A DNA stretch of 50,700 nt from a virus (lineage: Duplodnaviria > Caudoviricetes). The first letter of the stretch is position 1, and every line of letters starts with the position of its first letter. Both the position numbers and the translations under genes were made by a program. Under the pieces are notes generated by a model that was not told the DNA's origin, did not search any database, and saw only the letters and a list, made by a program, of their open reading frames with translations. The DNA is taken from the IMG/VR virus record IMGVR_UViG_3300028024_000181, positions 1-50,700 of that record. One strand, written 5' to 3'. Shown here one piece after another: positions 2,970 through 17,508 of the stretch.

Positions 2970-3181
2970 TTTTGCATCTCCCGGAGTGTCTCGGCATGCC
3001 TCTCGGTGAGACGCGCGTGGAAAGCCGTCAATGCATGGGTGACCGCGTCAAACTCTTTCTCAATGCCGAGTTTGAAGGCGTCGGGAAGCATGTCGTTAAG
3101 AAGCTTCGCTATGGCCGTCGTCCTGTCATCAAGCCGGTGCGTCGCGTCGTGCAATTGCGCTGACGTATAGTTGCTCATCAC
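2966..3181 (-). CDS. Hypothetical protein
   Basis: Overlap-coupled ORF in early operon. Confidence 0.6.
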   Translation of the reverse strand: MMSNYTSAQLHDATHRLDDRTTAIAKLLNDMLPDAFKLGIEKEFDAVTHALTAFHARLTERHAETLREMQN

Positions 3182-3726
3182 TCACCACCGCTTGCTGGCT
3201 GCGCGGCGCGAAAAGCGTTGCGCATGCGACGGCTGAAGTCGTGTTCGAATCCTCGATCATCAAACCAGGCGACAATTGCTCTATCAATCTGCTCATCCGT
3301 CAGCGCCCGCGTCTGCTCCACTGGTTGCGCTGGCGCGGCAGTTTCGTCACGCTGCGCACGGTACAAATCGACTTCGAGGCGAAGCACCTGTGCGGCCTTC
3401 TTGACCCGTTCGATTGCATTGAGAGATTCATCCTCTTGCCGCTCGTCGTCGCCGATGATAGTGGCGTAGACCTCTGCCAACGTCTCAGTCATGCGCTGCG
3501 CAACGTACGCGTCCTCGCCCAATGCTGGCGCGGCAGGGGCTAACTCCAATAGCCTTCGGATCGCTGTAAGAACAAACTTGGCAGCACCGGCGTGCGCCCT
3601 TATCGGGAAATAGACGCGCGGCTGAACCCGGGCAATCTCTTCGATCTCGGGCGAGAGTGCCTCCGCGAATCCAATGCGACCGCCTTCGGCTATGAGCCAA
3701 CCTACCAGGGTTAGATCAGCAGTCAT
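3178..3726 (-). CDS. Hypothetical phage protein
   Basis: Coupled ORF with ALTDEQI motif common in mosaic early phage proteins. Confidence 0.65.
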   Translation of the reverse strand: MTADLTLVGWLIAEGGRIGFAEALSPEIEEIARVQPRVYFPIRAHAGAAKFVLTAIRRLLELAPAAPALGEDAYVAQRMTETLAEVYATIIGDDERQEDESLNAIERVKKAAQVLRLEVDLYRAQRDETAAPAQPVEQTRALTDEQIDRAIVAWFDDRGFEHDFSRRMRNAFRAAQPASGGE

Positions 3727-4133
3727 GCTTCGCCTCGCGCTTGCTTGATCGCATCGGAGATAGCCACCATGTCCGCCCAGTACGTGCTTTTGGATGGCCG
3801 AAAGTTCGGGTCGGCGATGATCAACTGCGCGAGAAGGCCATCGAGCGCGGCGTGCGCTTTTTCGAGCAGCTGCAAATGATCACTAGACGCCGCCGGCGGC
3901 TGAGGCACATACGGACCGTGCAGCGTGAGCGTGCTGAGGAAGCGGTCCGGTGCTAGCTCGTGATCGATCGCCAGGCAGAAGACGCGGCCGCCCTGCGAGA
4001 CGAGCGGCACCAACAGGTCTGGATTCTTCGTATCGCCGCCGATATAGATGCCTTCCTTGCCGAGCATCGCGCGGACCTGCGGCTGCAGGGGGTCGATCTC
4101 TTCGGCTTGGCCAATGAGGATTGGATTTTTCAC
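3723..4133 (-). CDS. Hypothetical phage protein
   Basis: Coupled ORF with GTGA/ATGA overlaps. Confidence 0.65.
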   Translation of the reverse strand: MKNPILIGQAEEIDPLQPQVRAMLGKEGIYIGGDTKNPDLLVPLVSQGGRVFCLAIDHELAPDRFLSTLTLHGPYVPQPPAASSDHLQLLEKAHAALDGLLAQLIIADPNFRPSKSTYWADMVAISDAIKQARGEA

Positions 4134-4977: not shown

Positions 4978-5171
4978 TGGTGTTCCTCAAATAGGTCGGT
5001 CTGCGCCGCTGCATCGACGTGCTCCGGACAGCGGTGCAGATCGGCGCCGACCACCTGTGCGTGCTTCGCACACAGGTGCCTGTCGCACGTCCTGCCGGCC
5101 CTTGTCGGGTAGTCGCACTGGAAGCCGCTCGGTGCATTGCAACCGTCGACAGAGCAGCGGGGCGCACGCAT
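4974..5171 (-). CDS. Small Cys/His-rich putative Zn-binding protein
   Basis: C..C..CDYP..TCDRHLC..HA..C..H pattern; ATGA-coupled to next gene. Confidence 0.65.
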   Translation of the reverse strand: MRAPRCSVDGCNAPSGFQCDYPTRAGRTCDRHLCAKHAQVVGADLHRCPEHVDAAAQTDLFEEHQ

Positions 5172-5541
5172 GCGGCCGCGCGTGCAGACGATTCGGGCGG
5201 TTAGCGGCCCACTCCCTCCACTTAACAGCCTGTTTGCTGATGCTCTCCGTCAGACGGATCACGGACCAATACTGACGGTCCGTGATCTCATTCAAGTCCC
5301 ACGCAAGACGGAAAAGCGACTCGACGATCTTTACGCGCTCGATCAGCTGGGACAGGTGCGGTACCTTGTCCTCGGCGACATTGGCGCGATAGACGAGAAT
5401 CAGCAGTCGCTTCATCTCTTCGACGATATCCTCGCCGATCAATCGCCTGAACGAGCGTTCCATGTTTTTGACGATGCCTGTGACCTTCTTGAAAAGGTCA
5501 AATCCCGTCTTGTACACGTCGAGTTCGGTGTGGAGGGCCAT
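4987..5541 (-). CDS. avd: DGR accessory variability determinant (Avd-like four-helix bundle), with read-through C-terminal extension
   Basis: MALHTELDVYK..F+..IGE..LVYRAN..K..L..LI..LFRL..DL..I..QY..SISKQA.KW pattern; directly downstream of two VR-bearing genes; last ~65 codons look non-coding and overlap the next gene. Confidence 0.85.
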   Translation of the reverse strand: MALHTELDVYKTGFDLFKKVTGIVKNMERSFRRLIGEDIVEEMKRLLILVYRANVAEDKVPHLSQLIERVKIVESLFRLAWDLNEITDRQYWSVIRLTESISKQAVKWREWAANRPNRLHARPHACAPLLCRRLQCTERLPVRLPDKGRQDVRQAPVCEARTGGRRRSAPLSGARRCSGADRPI

Positions 5542-7290: not shown

Positions 7291-7725
7291 TTATTGGCTG
7301 AAGGAATAGCTGCCGGCGAGGTTCGTGTAGCCGTAGCCGCTGACGTCGGTGCCCACGCCCGACTTGCTCGAGCCATAGCCCGAACCACTCGTATAGCCGC
7401 CAGCATTCGCGTTCGAGACGCTGCCGGTGTAGCTGCCGGACGCCGATGCACCGCCGCCGATGCCTGCGAAACCGTACGAGCCGATGCCGGCGCCGATGAC
7501 GGTCCCGCCGATTGCATAGCCGCCGCCGGCGGAATTGCTCCACTGCGACGAAGAGCCATTGCCGTTCTGACCGGCCTCGGCCTGCGAGCCGCCCGACGTG
7601 CTGGACGACGAACCAAAGCCACCGCTGAACGACAGCGAACTGTTGCTCGAATAACCGCCTGCGAATGCCGCCGGTGCCGCGGCGAGGGAAAGTGTTGCGA
7701 GGACTGCGAGAGTGATGCGCTTCAT
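7291..7725 (-). CDS. Secreted Gly/Ser-rich low-complexity protein
   Basis: Signal peptide MKRITLAVLATLSLAAAPAAFA; mature part dominated by G/S/A/N/Y; GAGG RBS. Confidence 0.85.
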   Translation of the reverse strand: MKRITLAVLATLSLAAAPAAFAGGYSSNSSLSFSGGFGSSSSTSGGSQAEAGQNGNGSSSQWSNSAGGGYAIGGTVIGAGIGSYGFAGIGGGASASGSYTGSVSNANAGGYTSGSGYGSSKSGVGTDVSGYGYTNLAGSYSFSQ

Positions 7726-7782
7726 GGTCTACCTCAGGTTGGTTGGTCGCGCGGTAGTCCGGCCGCGCCCGGTACTGCGGAG

Positions 7783-7959
7783 TCAGTCGTGTTTCGCGTC
7801 TTCCGGCGGCCGCTCGATGGCGGCGCGGTAATAGGCTTCGGCAAAGCGGTATAGCGCGCTGACCGGGCCCGACACGCTTTGATATTCCTGGCGTCCGATC
7901 CGACCGTCGAGAACGACGGTTAGGCCAGCAGCGCGCGCGAGTTCAATGATGTCGGGCAT
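7783..7959 (-). CDS. Small conserved hypothetical protein
   Basis: IIELARAAGLTVVLDGRIGRQEYQSVSG..AL.RFA motif. Confidence 0.7.
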   Translation of the reverse strand: MPDIIELARAAGLTVVLDGRIGRQEYQSVSGPVSALYRFAEAYYRAAIERPPEDAKHD

Positions 7960-12263: not shown

Positions 12264-12509
12264 TCATTCCTCCGAGACAAGACGGATGCCGCGCATGGCA
12301 GCGGTCGCGGCGACGAAGTCCTGCATCGTCCGCACGTCGTTCAGCATCGTCCGGAGCATTTCCAGCGTGGCGCCCAGTTCGATCGCCGTTTCGAGCGCGT
12401 GTGCGGCGCCGCGTTGGACGAGGTGCTGCGCGATTAGCCCGGGACCGTCGAGCTCGAGCACGAGCTCGCGCGATTTATCGAAGTCGGGAATGTTGTCGAT
12501 CTTGGCCAT
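12264..12509 (-). CDS. Hypothetical protein
   Basis: GAGGA RBS; in operon. Confidence 0.6.
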   Translation of the reverse strand: MAKIDNIPDFDKSRELVLELDGPGLIAQHLVQRGAAHALETAIELGATLEMLRTMLNDVRTMQDFVAATAAMRGIRLVSEE

Positions 12510-12510
12510 G

Positions 12511-12780
12511 TCATTCCTCATCGATGTCGTTGGCGGCGCGCCGTTTGATATCGACGCATTGGTCGTCGAACCCGAGCGACGTCTGGTCGCCGATCTGGCG
12601 GCGCGGCTGTGAGCTACGGCGTGCCTTCGGGTTCGGATGGAGTTGGGCGCGGACCGCGGCCTGAACGGCGGCGCGCACTGCCGGCGAGAGCAGGGCCTCG
12701 TCGGGCTCGCCCTCGACGCCGAGCGTGCGGCAAGCCGGCGCCAGCATTTCGTCCGGGAGGCGGGTAGGAGTCGGTCGCAT
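12511..12780 (-). CDS. Hypothetical phage protein
   Basis: C-terminal DIKRRAAND motif; GAGAA RBS. Confidence 0.65.
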   Translation of the reverse strand: MRPTPTRLPDEMLAPACRTLGVEGEPDEALLSPAVRAAVQAAVRAQLHPNPKARRSSQPRRQIGDQTSLGFDDQCVDIKRRAANDIDEE

Positions 12781-12788
12781 GGCCGTTC

Positions 12789-12989
12789 TCACAGGCACCG
12801 GGTGAACGAGCACGACGAATCCCCAGCGGCCGCACGGTCCTGGTACTGCATATAGCCGAGCGTGAGCAGGTAGACGAACAGCACGCCGAGGATGGCGAGG
12901 ATGTTCCGGACGATCCGGAAAGCCGACTTCACAGCGCGAGCGCCGCGCCGGGTGTTGCCGGTGGGTGTTGCTGACTGTTGGTTGGCCAT
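12789..12989 (-). CDS. Small single-pass membrane protein, first gene after PL
   Basis: Hydrophobic ILAILGVLFVYLLTLGY; GGAG RBS. Confidence 0.7.
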   Translation of the reverse strand: MANQQSATPTGNTRRGARAVKSAFRIVRNILAILGVLFVYLLTLGYMQYQDRAAAGDSSCSFTRCL

Positions 12990-13022
12990 CGCTCGCTCCG
13001 TGGTTGCGGTGTGTTGGAGCGA

Positions 13023-13066
13023 ATAATAGAACTATCGGTTACCTTCTGTAAAGTACCGAAAGTTAC
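13023..13066 (-). promoter_or_regulatory. PL promoter with two operators
   Basis: TTTACA-18-TATTAT on minus strand; operators 13028-13042 and 13052-13066 match the OR motif. Confidence 0.75.
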
Positions 13067-13095
13067 CTAATTTGTAACAGCAAGGACATCAGGCG

Positions 13096-13120
13096 AAAAA
13101 AAGCCCGCTAGAAGCGGGCT
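13096..13120 (-). terminator. Intrinsic terminator of the repressor operon
   Basis: AGCCCGCT-TCT-AGCGGGCT followed by T-run on minus strand. Confidence 0.85.
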
Positions 13121-13140
13121 GGCCTGCAAATTCCGAATGT

Positions 13141-13389
13141 TCAGTGGGCCGTGATGAGATAGGTATCCAGCATGTTCGACGACACATCCAGACACCACGC
13201 GAGGACGGCTAGGACGTGCAGATCGGCAACGCGAGTCCGGCTGGGCACGATGGTGCCACCGCGTGTCACCGAAAAATGCACATCGGTCACTATCTCCTGG
13301 TCATGCTTGCGTTTTTTGCTATTCCTCGCGGCCCGGTAGGCTGCGAAGTCGACGATCTCAGGTCCCGTTCTTTCCCGTGTCATGTTCAT
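13141..13389 (-). CDS. Small protein co-transcribed with repressor
   Basis: EIVDFAAYR motif; lies between cI and terminator; start uncertain. Confidence 0.6.
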   Translation of the reverse strand: MNMTRERTGPEIVDFAAYRAARNSKKRKHDQEIVTDVHFSVTRGGTIVPSRTRVADLHVLAVLAWCLDVSSNMLDTYLITAH

Positions 13390-14038
13390 GGTCACTCTCA
13401 GGTTGCGCGGCCGATCGGGTGCCGGCTCTAGCGTGTCTGGCAAAGGTAGCCGGGCTTTCAGCAACCTTGTCAGAGGAGGAGTGTGCTTCTGTGGCGCGTG
13501 CTTTAAACGGCGGATTAGAGGTGTTTTTACCCTCTTCTCGAGAGTTTTGCGCGCCAAGCATTAATAGGATCGCCGCCCGAATTGTGGGCGACATGTCAGC
13601 TTGCACGGCATGCAATGCCGCACGCAATAAAGTTGCGTCATCGTCTGTAATTGCCATGAGACGGTGCTGCCCGTCTATTTCGTGCAGGATTTTGGCAAGG
13701 GCGCGTGTGAGCTGCGGTCCCGCCTGCGACGTTCCTCGGGCGGCGTCTTCCGCACGCAATGCTGTGTCTGGCACCGTGGGCACGCTAGCGCCCCGTTTCT
13801 CGCCGCGTTCCGTTGCGAGCCATTCGAAGTTGACGCCGAGCCAATGAGCAAGGTCCATCAGGCGCGACGTCTCCGGGATTGCTTCTCCCTCCAGCCACTT
13901 TCTGGCCCCTTTCTGCGAGACGCCCATCTTCTCGCCCAGCGCCCTTTGGCGGCCAGCGCCCTTCGCGGGGAAGCGGATATCGTCCAATGCCTCGTTCAGC
14001 CGGGCCGCGAAAGCGCGTTTTTGATCGTCAGTAACCAT
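13358..14038 (-). CDS. cI: CI-like XRE HTH repressor without S24 peptidase domain
   Basis: FAARLNEAL..GRQRALGEKMGVSQKGARKWLEGEAIP..LA..LGVNFEWL; divergent from cro. Confidence 0.88.
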   Translation of the reverse strand: MVTDDQKRAFAARLNEALDDIRFPAKGAGRQRALGEKMGVSQKGARKWLEGEAIPETSRLMDLAHWLGVNFEWLATERGEKRGASVPTVPDTALRAEDAARGTSQAGPQLTRALAKILHEIDGQHRLMAITDDDATLLRAALHAVQADMSPTIRAAILLMLGAQNSREEGKNTSNPPFKARATEAHSSSDKVAESPATFARHARAGTRSAAQPESDHEHDTGKNGT

Positions 14039-14107
14039 GAGTTCTATTGTCCTCGCATCGCAAGGAACAATCAGTTCTTGCCGACTGGTAACTTACGGTT
14101 CTAGAAT
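14031..14107 (+). promoter_or_regulatory. OR region: three operators and PR
   Basis: GTAACCATGAGTTCT (14031), GGAACAATCAGTTCT (14064), GTAACTTACGGTTCT (14088); TTGCCG-18-TAGAAT. Confidence 0.8.
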
Positions 14108-14114
14108 GCTGGCC

Positions 14115-14381
14115 ATGAACCTCATCGAACAAGCCATCAAGCACGCCGGCGGCGTCACTGCCTTCACGAAGGCTTTGAACGCGCTGATCGATCGCCCTGT
14201 GACCTATCAAGCCGTGAAAAAGTGGGCGGTGAAAGGCCGCTTGCCACGGACCGAATGGACCGGCGAGTCGAACTATGCTGCGGCGATCGAGCGTTTGACC
14301 GGTGGTCAAGTGCCGCGCGAGAAGCTTCTGCACACGCTGCCAGCATCGGCGACCGCGTCGCTTCAAGAGGAGGGCGTCTAA
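14115..14381 (+). CDS. cro: Cro-like HTH regulator
   Basis: IEQAIKHAGG....VTYQAVKKW..GRLPRTEWTGESNYA..IE. Confidence 0.88.
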   Translation: MNLIEQAIKHAGGVTAFTKALNALIDRPVTYQAVKKWAVKGRLPRTEWTGESNYAAAIERLTGGQVPREKLLHTLPASATASLQEEGV

Positions 14382-14689
14382 GTATGCGAGTTCTGATCCA
14401 GTTTTTTCGCGTACTCGTAGGCGACGGTGTTCGCGAACTCCAGTCGAGCGCGGGAATCGATCTCCAGGCCGCGGGCATTGCACCAGGCAATGAACTCGTC
14501 GAGTTTGATGTGTGCTTTGACGACCACAAGACCCTCCGCGAGACAACGCTTGCGCATCTGCTCGGCGCTGCGCTCCCACTTCAGGAAGCTCTCCGGCAGC
14601 CCGGAGCCGTCGTTGAACACCGATCGCGCGCGATCGTATTCCGACTTCATGAACCAGCTGATCGCAATGACTTTGGGGATGTCGCTCAT
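14378..14689 (-). CDS. Cassette 1 gene, hypothetical protein
   Basis: WF..EY.RAR..F.DG..LP.SF..W...AE..F..WC...G..DS.AR pattern; own TAGAAT box. Confidence 0.8.
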   Translation of the reverse strand: MSDIPKVIAISWFMKSEYDRARSVFNDGSGLPESFLKWERSAEQMRKRCLAEGLVVVKAHIKLDEFIAWCNARGLEIDSRARLEFANTVAYEYAKKLDQNSHT

Positions 14690-14863
14690 GTGTGAATGTT
14701 CCGTAGTGGTGACGCGTGTAGGAGCCGTCAATTCTACGGCGAGCGAGCATCCCCACCTCTTTTCCGAATTGGCACAAGCCGCGCCGCTCCAAGAGGAGGG
14801 CGTATGACGCATCACACGTTAAGACTGACTGCGGATGCATCGGGCCTGGGAGCGTCGGTGCAG

Positions 14864-15085
14864 TTACTTTCCGAGCTTGCCAAACGCTTTCCGGAGGTCG
14901 TTGAGCGATTTGTTGACGGACTGCTCGACCTTTCTGAACTCGTTCGCGTCGACGTGCGTAACTGCACCGCAGGAACTGCAGGTGAGGTTCGGATCTGTCT
15001 TGAGCCTTCGGATTGTTTCCGTGAGTTTCTTGCGGCAGTTGCCGCAGGGAATGTCGACGGTTTGGTTGTCGAAGTTGATGGTCAT
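14864..15085 (-). CDS. Cassette 2 gene, small zinc-ribbon protein
   Basis: CGNC...CSSC; GAGGGG RBS; own TAGAAT box. Confidence 0.8.
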   Translation of the reverse strand: MTINFDNQTVDIPCGNCRKKLTETIRRLKTDPNLTCSSCGAVTHVDANEFRKVEQSVNKSLNDLRKAFGKLGK

Positions 15086-15211
15086 GGGTGTTCCCCTCGC
15101 AAAGGAGATTGACGTGTGGAAACGCAATTCTAGCGCGGGGTGGAACACCCTCAATTTCGTGATCGGCGGCGCGGGCAACGCGGTTGCGCAGCAAGAGGAG
15201 GGCGTCTGATG

Positions 15212-15727
15212 TCATCGCGCCATCAACGCAATGAGCTTCGAATAGTCCGGCGGAGGGAGGAAACCGGCGAAATATTCGAATTCGCAGTCCGCACAGACAA
15301 GGTATTGGGCGCTCTTCACTCGAACCGGTTGCAGGTAGCCCGTCTTATCCGCGTTCACGCATTTCGGACATCTGTAGTGAATTGGCTCTTTGTCGGCGTA
15401 CGCCGACTTCAGGCGATAAACAACGGGTCCCTCGGTTATCGGAGTGAGTTCGTATCGAGAAAGCTCTCGCTTCTTAGCCTTCAGCTTTGCAATTTCCTCA
15501 TTAGCCGCCTTCAGATCGTGCTCAAGCGTTGCCACGCTCTTGATGAGACGTACGTTGTCCTCCGACGTTTGCAGCGTTGCGACGTTCAACTCGCGGATCT
15601 CGTCAACGAGGGTTTGCGTTGCTTTTTCGATCACAGACTCGTCGTGGGTCGCGACTCCTTTTGTGATCAAGCCCAGCGCACCGTTGACGGCAGCGAGGAT
15701 GCCAGAGACGGTAGTTGCAACAGCCAT
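15212..15727 (-). CDS. Cassette 3 gene, coiled-coil plus C-terminal zinc-ribbon protein
   Basis: Amphipathic N-terminus, coiled coil, CPKC...CADC; GAGGGG RBS; own TAGAAT box. Confidence 0.8.
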   Translation of the reverse strand: MAVATTVSGILAAVNGALGLITKGVATHDESVIEKATQTLVDEIRELNVATLQTSEDNVRLIKSVATLEHDLKAANEEIAKLKAKKRELSRYELTPITEGPVVYRLKSAYADKEPIHYRCPKCVNADKTGYLQPVRVKSAQYLVCADCEFEYFAGFLPPPDYSKLIALMAR

Positions 15728-15904
15728 GGGGGTTCCCCTCGTTCTGAAAAGGTAGGTGTAGGAACCACCGATTCTAAACGGGGAGCGAACCCCCGCCATT
15801 TTTGGCGCGGGCCGCGTGGCGGCGCGTGAATTCACGAGGATTTGCATGGTGTCCATGCAAAAAATTTTCGACGCCGGCCGACCGGTGTAGCAAGAGGTGT
15901 AACG

Positions 15905-16315
15905 ATGGAATTTGACTATTGGGGTGCCGCCGCGCACCCGCGTGGAAAGGCGATCCACCCTCCCGAACCGACCGCGCCGCTCACCCCGGCGCGTTTGCGT
16001 TTCCTGCCGCGCGGCGAGATCGAGGCCTGCGCAACATTTCGCGATGCGTGCGTGCTCGCCTGGAAGAACCGGCAACACCCGGGGATGACCACGACCTACC
16101 TCGCGTCTGTTTGCGATCTGACGCAGCAGCACGTGTCCGAGTACTTCCACGCCGACGAGCGCGACGAGAAGGGTCGTAAGCGACGGCAATTGCCGGCTGA
16201 CAAGGTCGGCGTGGTGCAGGAGCAGCTCGGCAATTGCGCGATCGGGCAATGGCTGGCGCGCGACATGGCCGTGCGCCTCGTCGAGGAGTTCTTCGCGGCG
16301 GAGAACGTGCGGTGA
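15905..16315 (+). CDS. CII-like transcriptional regulator
   Basis: Position after cro; HTH-like MT.TYLA..CDL..QHVSEYF; GN.AI.QWL; GAGGTG RBS. Confidence 0.65.
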   Translation: MEFDYWGAAAHPRGKAIHPPEPTAPLTPARLRFLPRGEIEACATFRDACVLAWKNRQHPGMTTTYLASVCDLTQQHVSEYFHADERDEKGRKRRQLPADKVGVVQEQLGNCAIGQWLARDMAVRLVEEFFAAENVR

Positions 16316-16503
16316 CGAAAAGCGAAGCCATGCGGCTGGCAAAAGAGGCGCTCCACGCGTTGCGCGCCCAGTCAGGAGACGAAGAGACGGTGAAGGAAAT
16401 GTTCATCTGGAAGATGCAGGCGGACCGGCGGCTTCACGAGGCGCTCACGGTGCTGGGCACCGCCCGCTTATGGGAATCGCAGTTGCAGCACCTTCGTCAC
16501 TAA
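16312..16503 (+). CDS. Hypothetical protein
   Basis: GTGA-coupled. Confidence 0.6.
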   Translation: MTKSEAMRLAKEALHALRAQSGDEETVKEMFIWKMQADRRLHEALTVLGTARLWESQLQHLRH

Positions 16504-16513
16504 CAGGGCAGTC

Positions 16514-16669
16514 ATGAACGCGGATCTGGTTGGCACGGTTGTGTTGCGCACGTTCGCGGTGATGGGCGTCGCTGTGGCGTTCATGCCGGCGATTGCGCGC
16601 TCGCGTGTGCGGTTTGGTTTCACGAGCTGTCTCGCGCTCGCTGCCGTGCTGATCTGGTTCAGGCCGTAG
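16514..16669 (+). CDS. Small membrane protein (51 aa, below ORF-track cutoff)
   Basis: MNADLVGTVVLRTFAVMGVAVAFMPAIARSRVRFGFTSCLALAAVLIWFRP; fills the gap in the operon. Confidence 0.55.
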   Translation: MNADLVGTVVLRTFAVMGVAVAFMPAIARSRVRFGFTSCLALAAVLIWFRP

Positions 16670-16676
16670 GAGTCAC

Positions 16677-16940
16677 ATGTCGTTTCACTTATCGAATCTC
16701 GCCTGGAGCGTCGAGCTCCGCCACGCACAGAAGATAGTCCTGCTGTGCCTTTCACATCTAGCGCTGCAGAGCACATGTGAATGTTCTGTCACGGTGCGCA
16801 GGCTCGCGTTCATGTGTGGCATGTCGGACAGTGGCGTGCGCGACCAGCTCGCGGCCCTGACAGCGGTTGGCCTGGTCGACGAGATCCCGGGCAATGGCGA
16901 GACCTTCTATCGCGTCAACGTGGTGGCGCGCGATGCCTGA
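16677..16940 (+). CDS. Winged HTH (HTH_36-like) protein
   Basis: AW....KIVLLCL....C..TV.RLA..CGMS...VR..L..L...GLV; AGGAG RBS. Confidence 0.75.
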   Translation: MSFHLSNLAWSVELRHAQKIVLLCLSHLALQSTCECSVTVRRLAFMCGMSDSGVRDQLAALTAVGLVDEIPGNGETFYRVNVVARDA

Positions 16941-17508
16941 GACGAGCAAGAAGGGCACGGCGGCCCGCCCACAGATCAACGCAGGCCTCGTCGAGGCCGC
17001 TATACGCCGTCACGTCGACCCGCGCGGCGCCCACACGCTCATTCCCGAAGCTGAAATTCGCTGGGGCGTCGGCTCGCAGCGCGGCGTTTATCGCGCGGAC
17101 TTCGTCATGATCACGCGCTCCAGTTACGCGACGGAGCTCGAGGTGAAAGTATCGCTCGCGGACTGGCGCAAGGATCTGTCGAAGCCGAAGTGGGTTGGCA
17201 TGCCCGCCTGGATCACGCGCTTCATCTACGTGGTGCCCGAGCAGCTCGGCATTCCTGAGTGGGTGCCCCCGCATGCCGGCGTGTGGCATGTGCGCCCGCG
17301 GCCGTCGCAATACGAAGCGTGGGAAGGGCCGCGGCGCCCCGACGGCTATCAGATCGTGGTCGCCCGCGCGCCGCACGTGCTCGGCCGCGAAAAGCTACCA
17401 GCTGCCGTGCTCGGCACGTGGCTGCGCAATCTCTATTACCGCTACTGGGAACAGCGGGTTCATCTTGAGGGCCGCATTGCGCGGCACGTGCGGGAGAGCG
17501 TTGCATGA
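16933..17508 (+). CDS. MmcB-like PD-(D/E)xK nuclease
   Basis: YRADFV....ELEVKVSLADWRKD..K....F.YVVP. Confidence 0.75.
   Translation: MPETSKKGTAARPQINAGLVEAAIRRHVDPRGAHTLIPEAEIRWGVGSQRGVYRADFVMITRSSYATELEVKVSLADWRKDLSKPKWVGMPAWITRFIYVVPEQLGIPEWVPPHAGVWHVRPRPSQYEAWEGPRRPDGYQIVVARAPHVLGREKLPAAVLGTWLRNLYYRYWEQRVHLEGRIARHVRESVA

Follow-up and report, generated by a model that had tools for sequence, protein, structure and literature searches.

A variable interval of antisense gene units with a shared promoter-like hairpin next to cro in lambdoid prophages of Paraburkholderia and related hosts

The moron concept, which reportedly goes back to Juhala et al. and Hendrix et al. in 2000, concerns extra genes that lie between two genes adjacent in related phages. 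A comparable arrangement is found in virulent T4-type phages in the form of PeSL cassettes, in which, according to the passages on these elements in PMC2839356 and PMC4122927, a sigma-70-like promoter and a stem-loop are placed between small non-essential open reading frames (ORFs) of unknown function. For phage lambda, a part of PMC8630535 describes PRE as a weak, CII-dependent leftward promoter between cro and cII without a gene of its own. Here we describe a locus that partly resembles each of these systems. It lies in the virus record IMGVR_UViG_3300028024_000181, whose 50,700 nucleotides (hereafter the window) constitute a complete 50.7-kb provirus record with 61% G+C, a prophage of a soil Paraburkholderia. 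Between cro and the next rightward gene of this prophage three small genes, called A, B and C in the following, are inserted on the opposite strand. With a probability of roughly three in four we consider this interval to be a moron-like and PeSL-like slot for accessory genes, which changes by homologous recombination in its conserved flanks. The slot is common to a group of temperate phages of lambdoid type whose hosts are Paraburkholderia, Burkholderia and Trinickia. A preliminary description of the locus, made from the sequence alone, had named no known system of this architecture; analogues do exist in the morons and in the PeSL cassettes.

The array is marked out by a 14-bp repeat, M (CAAGAGGAGGGCGT), with three exact copies on the plus strand at 14364-14377, 14790-14803 and 15192-15205. 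The first copy is the 3' end of cro and encodes QEEGV, as had been noticed before. Allowing up to 2 mismatches in the window, or up to 1 across the 50.7-kb record, brought no further copies to light. Dinucleotide shuffles contained on average 0.46 matches at up to 2 mismatches and reached three matches in 1 of 100 cases, the real copies being all exact. Each copy is followed by a gene on the minus strand: A (14378-14689, 103 aa), B (14864-15085, 73 aa, with a CxxC...CxxC zinc ribbon) and C (15212-15727, 171 aa). The G+C content at third codon positions (GC3) of these genes is 0.79, 0.76 and 0.64, respectively. A codon model that had been trained with 12 long window genes scored all three positive and the overlapping plus-strand frames near zero or negative, and the proteins match the PHROGs families phrog_4753 (8.7e-22), phrog_6417 (6.1e-06) and phrog_1244 (6.9e-22). 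GC3, codon model and PHROGs thus agree that a real minus-strand gene follows each repeat, as the preliminary description had proposed. The overall G+C content of A, B and C (0.58, 0.54 and 0.55) lies below that of the record (0.61) and of the neighbouring genes (0.60-0.66), which is a signature of acquired genes.

At its 5' end each cassette gene carries a conserved element of about 100 bp, P, which is fused exactly at the start codon to the short and otherwise unrelated ORF. Three matches on the minus strand were obtained with nhmmer in the window record: P_A (14674-14775, E value 2.7e-15), P_B (15068-15168, 6e-18) and P_C (15714-15813, 6.3e-26). Read in the sense of the cassette gene, P is composed of an A-rich stretch, a -35 hexamer (such as TTGGTG or TTGAGG), a spacer of 16-17 bp, the -10 hexamer TAGAAT, a leader hairpin with the loop TTCCNACAC, a Shine-Dalgarno sequence and the ATG. 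The -10 hexamer occurs in 3/3 window units, each time within a hairpin-forming element (ATTCTA on the plus strand at 14731, 15127 and 15771, i.e. TAGAAT at 14736-14731 in P_A and 15776-15771 in P_C), and is conserved in 19/19 aligned P copies. In P_B it belongs to the predicted promoter TTGAGG-16-TAGAAT (15154-15127), which agrees at 9/12 positions in a promoter scan.

The two halves of P, promoter and leader, form an imperfect inverted repeat. In 18/19 copies the element folds into the same rod of 27 pairs, P_A retaining the inner helices only. When read in the sense of the rightward early promoter (PR), the hairpins of P_B and P_C have folding energies of -40.5 kcal/mol (z-score -5.5) and -44.5 kcal/mol (z-score -5.2). 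Overall the B and C copies fold far better than shuffled sequences (z-scores of -3.6 to -5.5) and the A copy no better (-0.2 and +0.15), such that the stem-loop with TAGAAT that had been reported after each gene is seen three times, with this reservation for A. Compensatory changes are found in the outer 9-pair stem (AU 9 against GC 9, GC 11 against AU 6, one UA), and 0/500 shuffles reached the observed values. Three different stem sequences occur within this one phage, which favours base pairing as the conserved property and disfavours a shared protein operator. With the rod taken in full, pairing is seen in PR sense in 88.0% of 509 cells, compared to 78.4% in cassette sense, a comparison for which the structure was taken from a single PR-sense fold that favours this strand, from copies that are related to one another. 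Two columns account for the gap; in PR sense they read U-G in 13/19 and 16/19 copies. The PR-sense RNA is the more stable form in 17/19 copies. From these letters we take P to be a putative sigma-70-like promoter enclosed in a conserved, covarying hairpin of 27 pairs.

Of the rod, an mRNA that begins at P includes no more than the 3' half. Formation of the whole rod would therefore require a PR transcript, leftward read-through that comes from an upstream unit, or DNA in single-stranded form. As one candidate role, the hairpin may act on PR transcripts as a weak terminator or as an RNase III site, since a short U-run follows it; another is that it hides the ribosome-binding site on read-through transcripts. 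The 3' part of P_C scores as terminator-like on the plus strand (15779-15795) with the tail CCATTTTTGG, a weak U-tract. Two other ideas about P were dropped. Control by CI or Cro was rejected because P is conserved among phages with unrelated cI and cro, and a 52-bp invertible promoter segment between 9-bp arms was rejected as too short.

Relatives of the locus were collected in two ways: 13 loci via a conserved downstream protein (window 16867-17508), and additional viral and genome loci via the DNA pattern of P. A hidden Markov model (HMM) of P gave 36 matches, corresponding to 20 distinct sequences in 16 distinct loci including the window. Together with two loci beyond this set, L088 and Burkholderia phage Bcep176 (P upstream of gp15, E value 6.5e-09), P is found in 18 phages including the window, and the named hosts of these phages and prophages are Paraburkholderia species, a Burkholderia sp. 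and Trinickia. The two P elements of the relative G001 are letter-identical to those of L150 (P. xenovorans LB400 chromosome 1). Two further candidates were discarded: L146 matched a 19-mer P pattern by a chance 22-base match inside a structural gene, and L154, a metagenome-assembled genome of Desulfobacterales, had no nhmmer match to P.

Among the 13 protein-anchored relatives P is present in 8 and absent in 4 (L132, L134, L137 and L141), in which cro is directly followed by the next rightward gene, while L131 is too short to tell. The number of units per slot is three in the window, two in G001 and L136, and one in L088, L133, L135, L138, L139, L142, L151, L152, L155, L159 and L163; the intervals of L140, L149 and L161 are incomplete and were given no count. 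The 19 ORFs that are fused to P fall into 11 BLASTP families. A 20th ORF, L136a, was excluded from the families because it has no ATG at the aligned column. In this first unit of L136 (around 7560-7790, minus strand) an apparent small ORF (MTPVVSRIFAEIGYDPATRQMKVRF...) seems to have lost its start codon at the aligned position, and it may encode a KTSC-type domain. The relatives do not carry an invariant three-gene block: with 0 to 3 units of differing gene content they behave as expected for the plug-in hotspot that the preliminary description had suggested.

The position of the breakpoints was obtained from pairs of related loci. The window and G001 have unrelated cI genes; G001 lacks A, has a 99% identical copy of B and carries another gene in place of C. 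The two sequences are 99% identical over exactly 14780-15209, i.e. from 23 bases before the end of the second M copy to 4 bases past the third, and homology resumes 3 bases ahead of the start codon of C. L159 and L163 have flanks that are 99% and 91% identical and differ only between M+8 and position -2 of the cassette ATG, which amounts to a clean swap of one ORF. When all high-scoring segment pairs that cover P are considered, 55/60 (55 locus pairs) end between -16 and +14 of the cassette start codon in both loci, and the remaining 5/60 are pairs that share a cassette family. The breakpoints of these comparisons lie at the repeat and at the hairpin/promoter element, where the preliminary description had asked for them.

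The relatives also reveal the nature of M. As a plain 14-mer it is found in single copies in at least 119 IMG/VR stretches, many of them unrelated contigs; among the matches listed, only G001 (L048) contains it twice, 402 bp apart, which is the spacing of the second and third copy in the window. In the relatives the core GAGGAGGGCGT is followed by CTGAnATG, and the upstream frame is the end of cro, ..(Q/H/K/T)EEGV*. M overlaps this cro end with the Shine-Dalgarno sequence and the stop/start junction GAGGAGGGCGTCTGAnATG of a rightward gene, X (plus strand, 62-186 aa), whose ATG lies at a fixed distance past M and which begins with MRRIRSMLIPVRGQIRKR... in three phages. The differences among three X genes are mostly at third codon positions (7/10, 6/9 and 9/11), which argues that X is a real gene, translationally coupled to cro via the Shine-Dalgarno sequence inside M. 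The window is without X. Judged from these alignments, M is the cro 3' end joined to the ribosome-binding site of whichever rightward gene comes next. It is not a site devoted to recombination, and the earlier idea of a special crossover site was not borne out. X is a mosaic family after cro in the relatives (L130 7921-8277; L135 7789-8130; L139 7916-8431; L138 7632-8123; L136 7899-8459; L152 4000-4560; all plus strand) with an arginine-rich N-terminus. It converges on the cassette gene with an overlap of about 90-190 bases; no Pfam family was found for it, and Pfam and PHROGs searches gave nothing above noise.

The three M copies of the window are preceded by remnants of three different cro ends: the first by cro itself, the second by a remnant resembling the G001 cro end (..APLQEEGV), and the third by GCGCAG, which the cro ends of L133, L136 and L138 also have. 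Each array unit thus appears to have brought along part of a different cro end. Ribosome-binding sites similar to M are also present past the last P, namely CAGGAGTGCGTAGATG in L133, CACGAGGTGCGCTGAGTG in L155 and CAAGAGGTGTAACGATG in the window, where a degenerate fourth M (CAAGAGGTGTAACG, 15891-15904, plus strand) serves, as read from the sequence, as the predicted ribosome-binding site of the gene at 15905-16315. The units are hence bounded on both sides by similar short sequences, which offers a route to tandem stacking. The distance between the cassette stop codon and M varies (3, 9, 23, 63 and 78-342 bases), and recombination near a shared junction fits this better than a fixed crossover site.

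Taken together, we picture the unit as a small leftward transcription unit antisense to PR, which would start with P, continue with the ORF and have its far end at M. Since P (about 100 bp) and M with its flanks (11-25 bp) are common to otherwise different phages, units could be exchanged by homologous recombination. General or phage-encoded homologous recombination between co-resident relatives would replace, add or delete units, and the M-like ribosome-binding site past the last P would allow them to stack in tandem, as in the three found here. In the prophage each cassette gene would be read from its own promoter, to the benefit of the lysogen, and after induction this transcription would collide head-on with transcription from PR. 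Promoter activity, expression in the lysogen and silencing upon induction are in this scheme expectations from the arrangement of the elements.

The cargo is best characterized for C. A search against 1.84 billion representative proteins gave 534 matches at an E value of at most 0.001. A family profile from 50 members, chosen from 150 listed and mostly matched over most of their length, matched PDB entry 9oox_L (HK446 Rip1) with an E value of 1.4e-35 over 145 positions, compared to 9.5e-07 for the single C sequence. In the entry 9oox, "ring interacting pore 1 (Rip1)" from phage HK446 was solved together with the T6 small terminase. The AlphaFold2 model of C has a predicted local distance difference test (pLDDT) score of 92.7 and consists of helices at 2-27 and 30-89 followed by a C-terminal beta domain, in which H117, C120, C123, C145 and C148 are invariant in the family. 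With this model Foldseek returned 9oox_M and 9oox_L as the sole significant matches (probability 1.00, template modelling score 0.41-0.56). By sequence and by fold C belongs to the Rip1 family. According to section 5 of PMC13434031, Rip1 is a prophage-encoded single-protein anti-phage defence that assembles on the small terminase or portal rings of an infecting phage and forms a membrane pore. By analogy with Rip1, C would act as an anti-phage pore protein in abortive infection. Defence cargo, as had been proposed for the array, is therefore borne out for C, one of the three genes.

Genes of the Rip1 family are opposite in strand to every flanking gene also in HK446 (L170, 2480-2974), HK620 (L165, 3492-3986) and the Pseudomonas Casadabanvirus PfII40a (L171, 2501-3004). 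In HK446 and HK620 they lie within the PL operon, in PfII40a between late genes, and in the window at the position described here. This antisense placement in three unrelated phage lineages suggests a simple means by which a prophage could silence its own abortive-infection gene upon induction.

The picture is different for A and B, for which the proposed defence role found no support. A is homologous to gp17 of Bcep176 and gave no PADLOC, Pfam or PDB match; its AlphaFold2 model is poor (pLDDT 57) and its Atlas neighbours are annotated only as "hypothetical protein". In a word-indexed homologue search A returned one close relative and C only itself. B has weak matches to DUF7836 and YnfU, both below the cut-off, and no PDB sequence match or PADLOC match. 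With PADLOC run on A, B, C and 7 other cassette proteins there were 0 matches, and Pfam and PHROGs gave nothing above noise for the other cassette proteins. As A and B lack PADLOC, Pfam and PDB matches, we attribute defence cargo to C only. The ten families linked to P besides the one with the Rip1 defence are all small proteins. A 51% identical homologue of B occurs at 2998-3282 (reverse orientation) of L169, an unrelated viral contig of 50% G+C without P and M, where it is the first in a series of leftward genes, among them a cI-like gene.

RNA-library data were available for a G001-type relative in three runs of one study, each run holding 0.10 of the words. Contigs of 1.0-2.5 kb with a word depth of 71-180 cover B and bridge both M copies; such contigs show neither strand nor transcript ends, and carry-over of DNA is possible. 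There was no cover at the P to the right of the second cassette (depth 71-180 on the left versus 10 on the right), a step that we do not count as evidence of a transcription start, as the contigs come from one study.

Several observations weigh against a slot for accessory genes in which homologous recombination brings about the changes. For A and B, two of the three cargo genes, PADLOC, Pfam and PDB gave no match, and the RNA contigs over cassette B carry no information on strand or 5' end. For homologous recombination M offers little length, and a scan of 10 left-arm ORFs identified no phage recombinase. Only P_B of the three P copies passes the simple promoter scan, the -35 hexamers of P_C and P_A being poor. 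A long covarying hairpin is superfluous for a plain promoter, such that part of the role of P is left unexplained. Lastly, on the minus strand no terminator-like site was found downstream of A, B and C or between C and cI. The units are hence not closed like classical morons, and leftward transcripts may run on into cro and cI.

The last point is shared by the alternative that survives best, namely that the leftward promoters are primarily part of the lysis-lysogeny circuit, in the manner of PRE. Antisense cro RNA, collision with PR transcription and read-on into cI would then be their function, the ORFs would be passengers, and stacking would tune the switch. P indeed has cro on one side and the next rightward gene on the other, and it is directed towards cro and cI. 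Position and direction are those of lambda PRE as given in the part of PMC8630535 cited above, and the transcript from P would likewise be antisense to cro. P is also conserved among heteroimmune phages. In addition, one 2.5-kb RNA-library contig (one run, G001-type relative) spans B and about 1.6 kb to its left, being strandless and, as a contig, not proof of one transcript. In contrast to the weak, CII-dependent PRE, the -10 hexamer of P is near consensus, no TTGC-N6-TTGC repeats are visible by eye around the -35 region of the aligned copies, and P has an ORF of its own. It is equally conserved where the downstream gene is of another family and the homologue of the gene labelled cII (a label that is unverified) is absent. 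The ORFs are under constraint at the protein level and belong to families found in other phages. Of the assessable relatives 4/12 are without P, which is thus not essential to the switch. We consider a primarily regulatory function unlikely.

Still more doubtful is a joint proposal in which P is a portable structured socket: it would express any joined ORF leftward, its PR-sense hairpin would gate or process early transcription, and the folded hairpin would capture new ORFs at the start codon. As part of this rather improbable combination the cargo would be shut off on induction, which would keep Rip1 from firing at the prophage's own terminase and portal. If this were true, the locus would be a phage-borne, integrase-independent counterpart of the integron platform inside the lysis-lysogeny switch.

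Resemblance to integrons had been part of the preliminary description, and it holds in formal terms. As in integron arrays, short unrelated single-gene units stand in tandem, a structured element recurs, and number and content vary among relatives. One could therefore imagine that the P hairpin or M is the substrate of a site-specific recombinase that captures and excises cassettes, as attC is. The stem sequence of P varies while its pairing is conserved, junctions fall sharply at M+4 to M+8 and at the start codon, and the three M copies follow three different cro-end remnants, all of which would fit. However, the window has no intI, attI, Pc or attC core; the only tyrosine recombinase or Phage_integrase match found is the phage integrase at 1-1053, 13 kb from the array, whose own neighbours are cI, cro and an early gene. 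The structured element lies at the 5' end of the cassette and contains a predicted promoter, with which the cassettes would not be promoterless. Conservation is found in the centre of this element and variation in its stem, whereas attC shows the opposite. At the 3' end there is only the 14-bp M, and crossover at a fixed point is made less likely by the varying distance from stop codon to M. Homologous exchange fits the breakpoints, and inside the approximately 100-bp P it accounts for the sharp right-hand junction without a site-specific enzyme. A recombinase-driven array is accordingly very improbable.

Hardly credible is the last alternative, that the plus-strand ORFs at 14384-14695, 14804-15112 and 15209-15829 are the real genes, with the repeat as their ribosome-binding site and the minus-strand ORFs spurious: each repeat does contain GAGGAGG with an ATG 0-8 bases on, and all three frames are open from the ATG after M across the whole antisense gene (chance 0.32, 0.50 and 0.20, jointly about 0.03), but their codon-model scores are about zero per codon (+0.15, -0.02 and -0.08), their translations resemble those of antisense frames, the codon-aligned antisense frame to which they correspond is often open in GC-rich genes, and it is the minus-strand ORFs that match PHROGs at about 1e-21 (A and C) and, for C, a solved protein. 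A related idea, that translation of these ORFs shields PR transcripts from polarity, was rejected, given the joint open-frame chance of about 0.03 and the fact that in the relatives X stops inside the cassette gene.

An accessory-gene slot, in turn, can be compared with the described systems feature by feature. With morons it shares extra genes between genes that are adjacent in relatives, here in L132, L134, L137 and L141, as well as the lower G+C content; a promoter of its own, predicted by the scan for one unit of three, and presumed expression from the prophage would be further points in common. C furthermore belongs to the protein family of hkaP (HK620) and Rip1 (HK446) and is, like these, antisense to the early operon. 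It differs in that no terminator was found for the window units, in that three of them stand in tandem, and in that one promoter/leader of about 100 bp, fused at the start codon, is common to the units of 18 phages, an element that classical morons lack. With PeSLs, as far as the passages cited above describe them, the slot shares the recurrence of a composite of promoter and stem-loop among variable ORFs, the position of insertion, deletion and replacement breakpoints at these elements, and homologous recombination as the explanation. In these passages, PeSLs lie in hyperplastic regions of virulent T4-like phages, are co-directional, and have stem-loops that are shown terminators. Here, in contrast, the phage is temperate and lambdoid (integrase, cI, cro), the units lie inside the early right operon and against its direction, and the predicted promoter is inside the hairpin.

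A parallel in a published phage is that of Bcep176 (NC_007497; L166), where a leftward block, gp15-gp20, lies between gp21 at the position of cro and the CII-like gp14 and includes the homologue of A as gp17. Of P, a full element is located ahead of gp15 and a partial leader ahead of gp17 (3375-3466 and 3919-3968). Different from the window, the six genes are tightly packed behind one full P in an operon-like manner, and no M repeat was found. The inner hairpin stem of the Bcep176 P is different again and still complementary (TGGC...GCCA).

New with respect to the described systems are the placement next to the switch of temperate lambdoid phages, the tandem order in antisense, a single promoter/leader fused at the start codon in 18 phages, and the covarying hairpin around the promoter. 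Our literature searches, which left most subscription journals and supplements outside, returned no description of this arrangement or of the Bcep176 block. Cassettes of promoter and hairpin that drive modular shuffling, described for virulent T4-type phages, would hereby extend to the switch region of temperate lambdoid phages, and the covarying hairpin enclosing the predicted promoter represents an unexplained cis element conserved in 18 phages. For practical purposes the slot provides a findable address for accessory and defence genes in prophages of Burkholderiaceae, where any gene fused to P is a candidate.

The surrounding switch region is lambdoid in its layout. A cI-like repressor gene (13358-14038, minus strand, 226 aa) matches Pfam HTH_3 with an E value of 1.7e-05, above the cut-off, as well as Phage_CI_repr (7.2e-03) and PHROGs families of transcriptional repressors. 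On the plus strand it is followed by a PR-like promoter, TTGCCG-18-TAGAAT (14078-14107, 9/12 positions in the promoter scan), and by the cro-like gene (14115-14381, 88 aa), whose C-terminus ...LQEEGV lies within the first M copy and whose matches to Pfam YdaS_toxin (5.2e-07) and P22_Cro (2.7e-04) are both slightly below the cut-off. The cro protein of the window is unrelated to that of G001 save for the last 8 residues, the tail encoded by M. The ATG of cro at 14115 comes 8 bases after the -10 hexamer of the PR-like promoter, which ends at 14107; being so near, the cro mRNA may be leaderless. With the cI protein as query for related loci no relative was obtained, nor was there a match of the DNA at 13300-16400 in the phage collection. 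Rfam applied to 12500-17000 found nothing in the region and one sub-threshold Trp-leader match outside of it.

The first rightward gene after the array (15905-16315, plus strand, ATG at 15905, 136 aa) had been called cII before. It has no Pfam or NCBIfam family and no similarity to the CII-like gp14 of Bcep176, such that this label is only positional. Homologues of the gene follow P in L135, L149, L152, L161 and L088. Between P_C and this gene the sequence contains a perfect 8-3-8 palindrome, TTGCATGG-TGT-CCATGCAA, followed by AAAAATTTT (15843-15861), which may be a binding site or a terminator. In front of the homologous gene, G001, L135 and L088 carry identical letters and L152 differs by one base; the palindrome also becomes visible as ORF starts reading LHGVHAKNF or LHGFHAKNF.

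Away from the switch, the ORF at 4987-5541 on the minus strand has a weak bAvd-like Pfam match (E value 2.7e-05, below the cut-off). Proteins of the bAvd-like type accompany diversity-generating retroelements.

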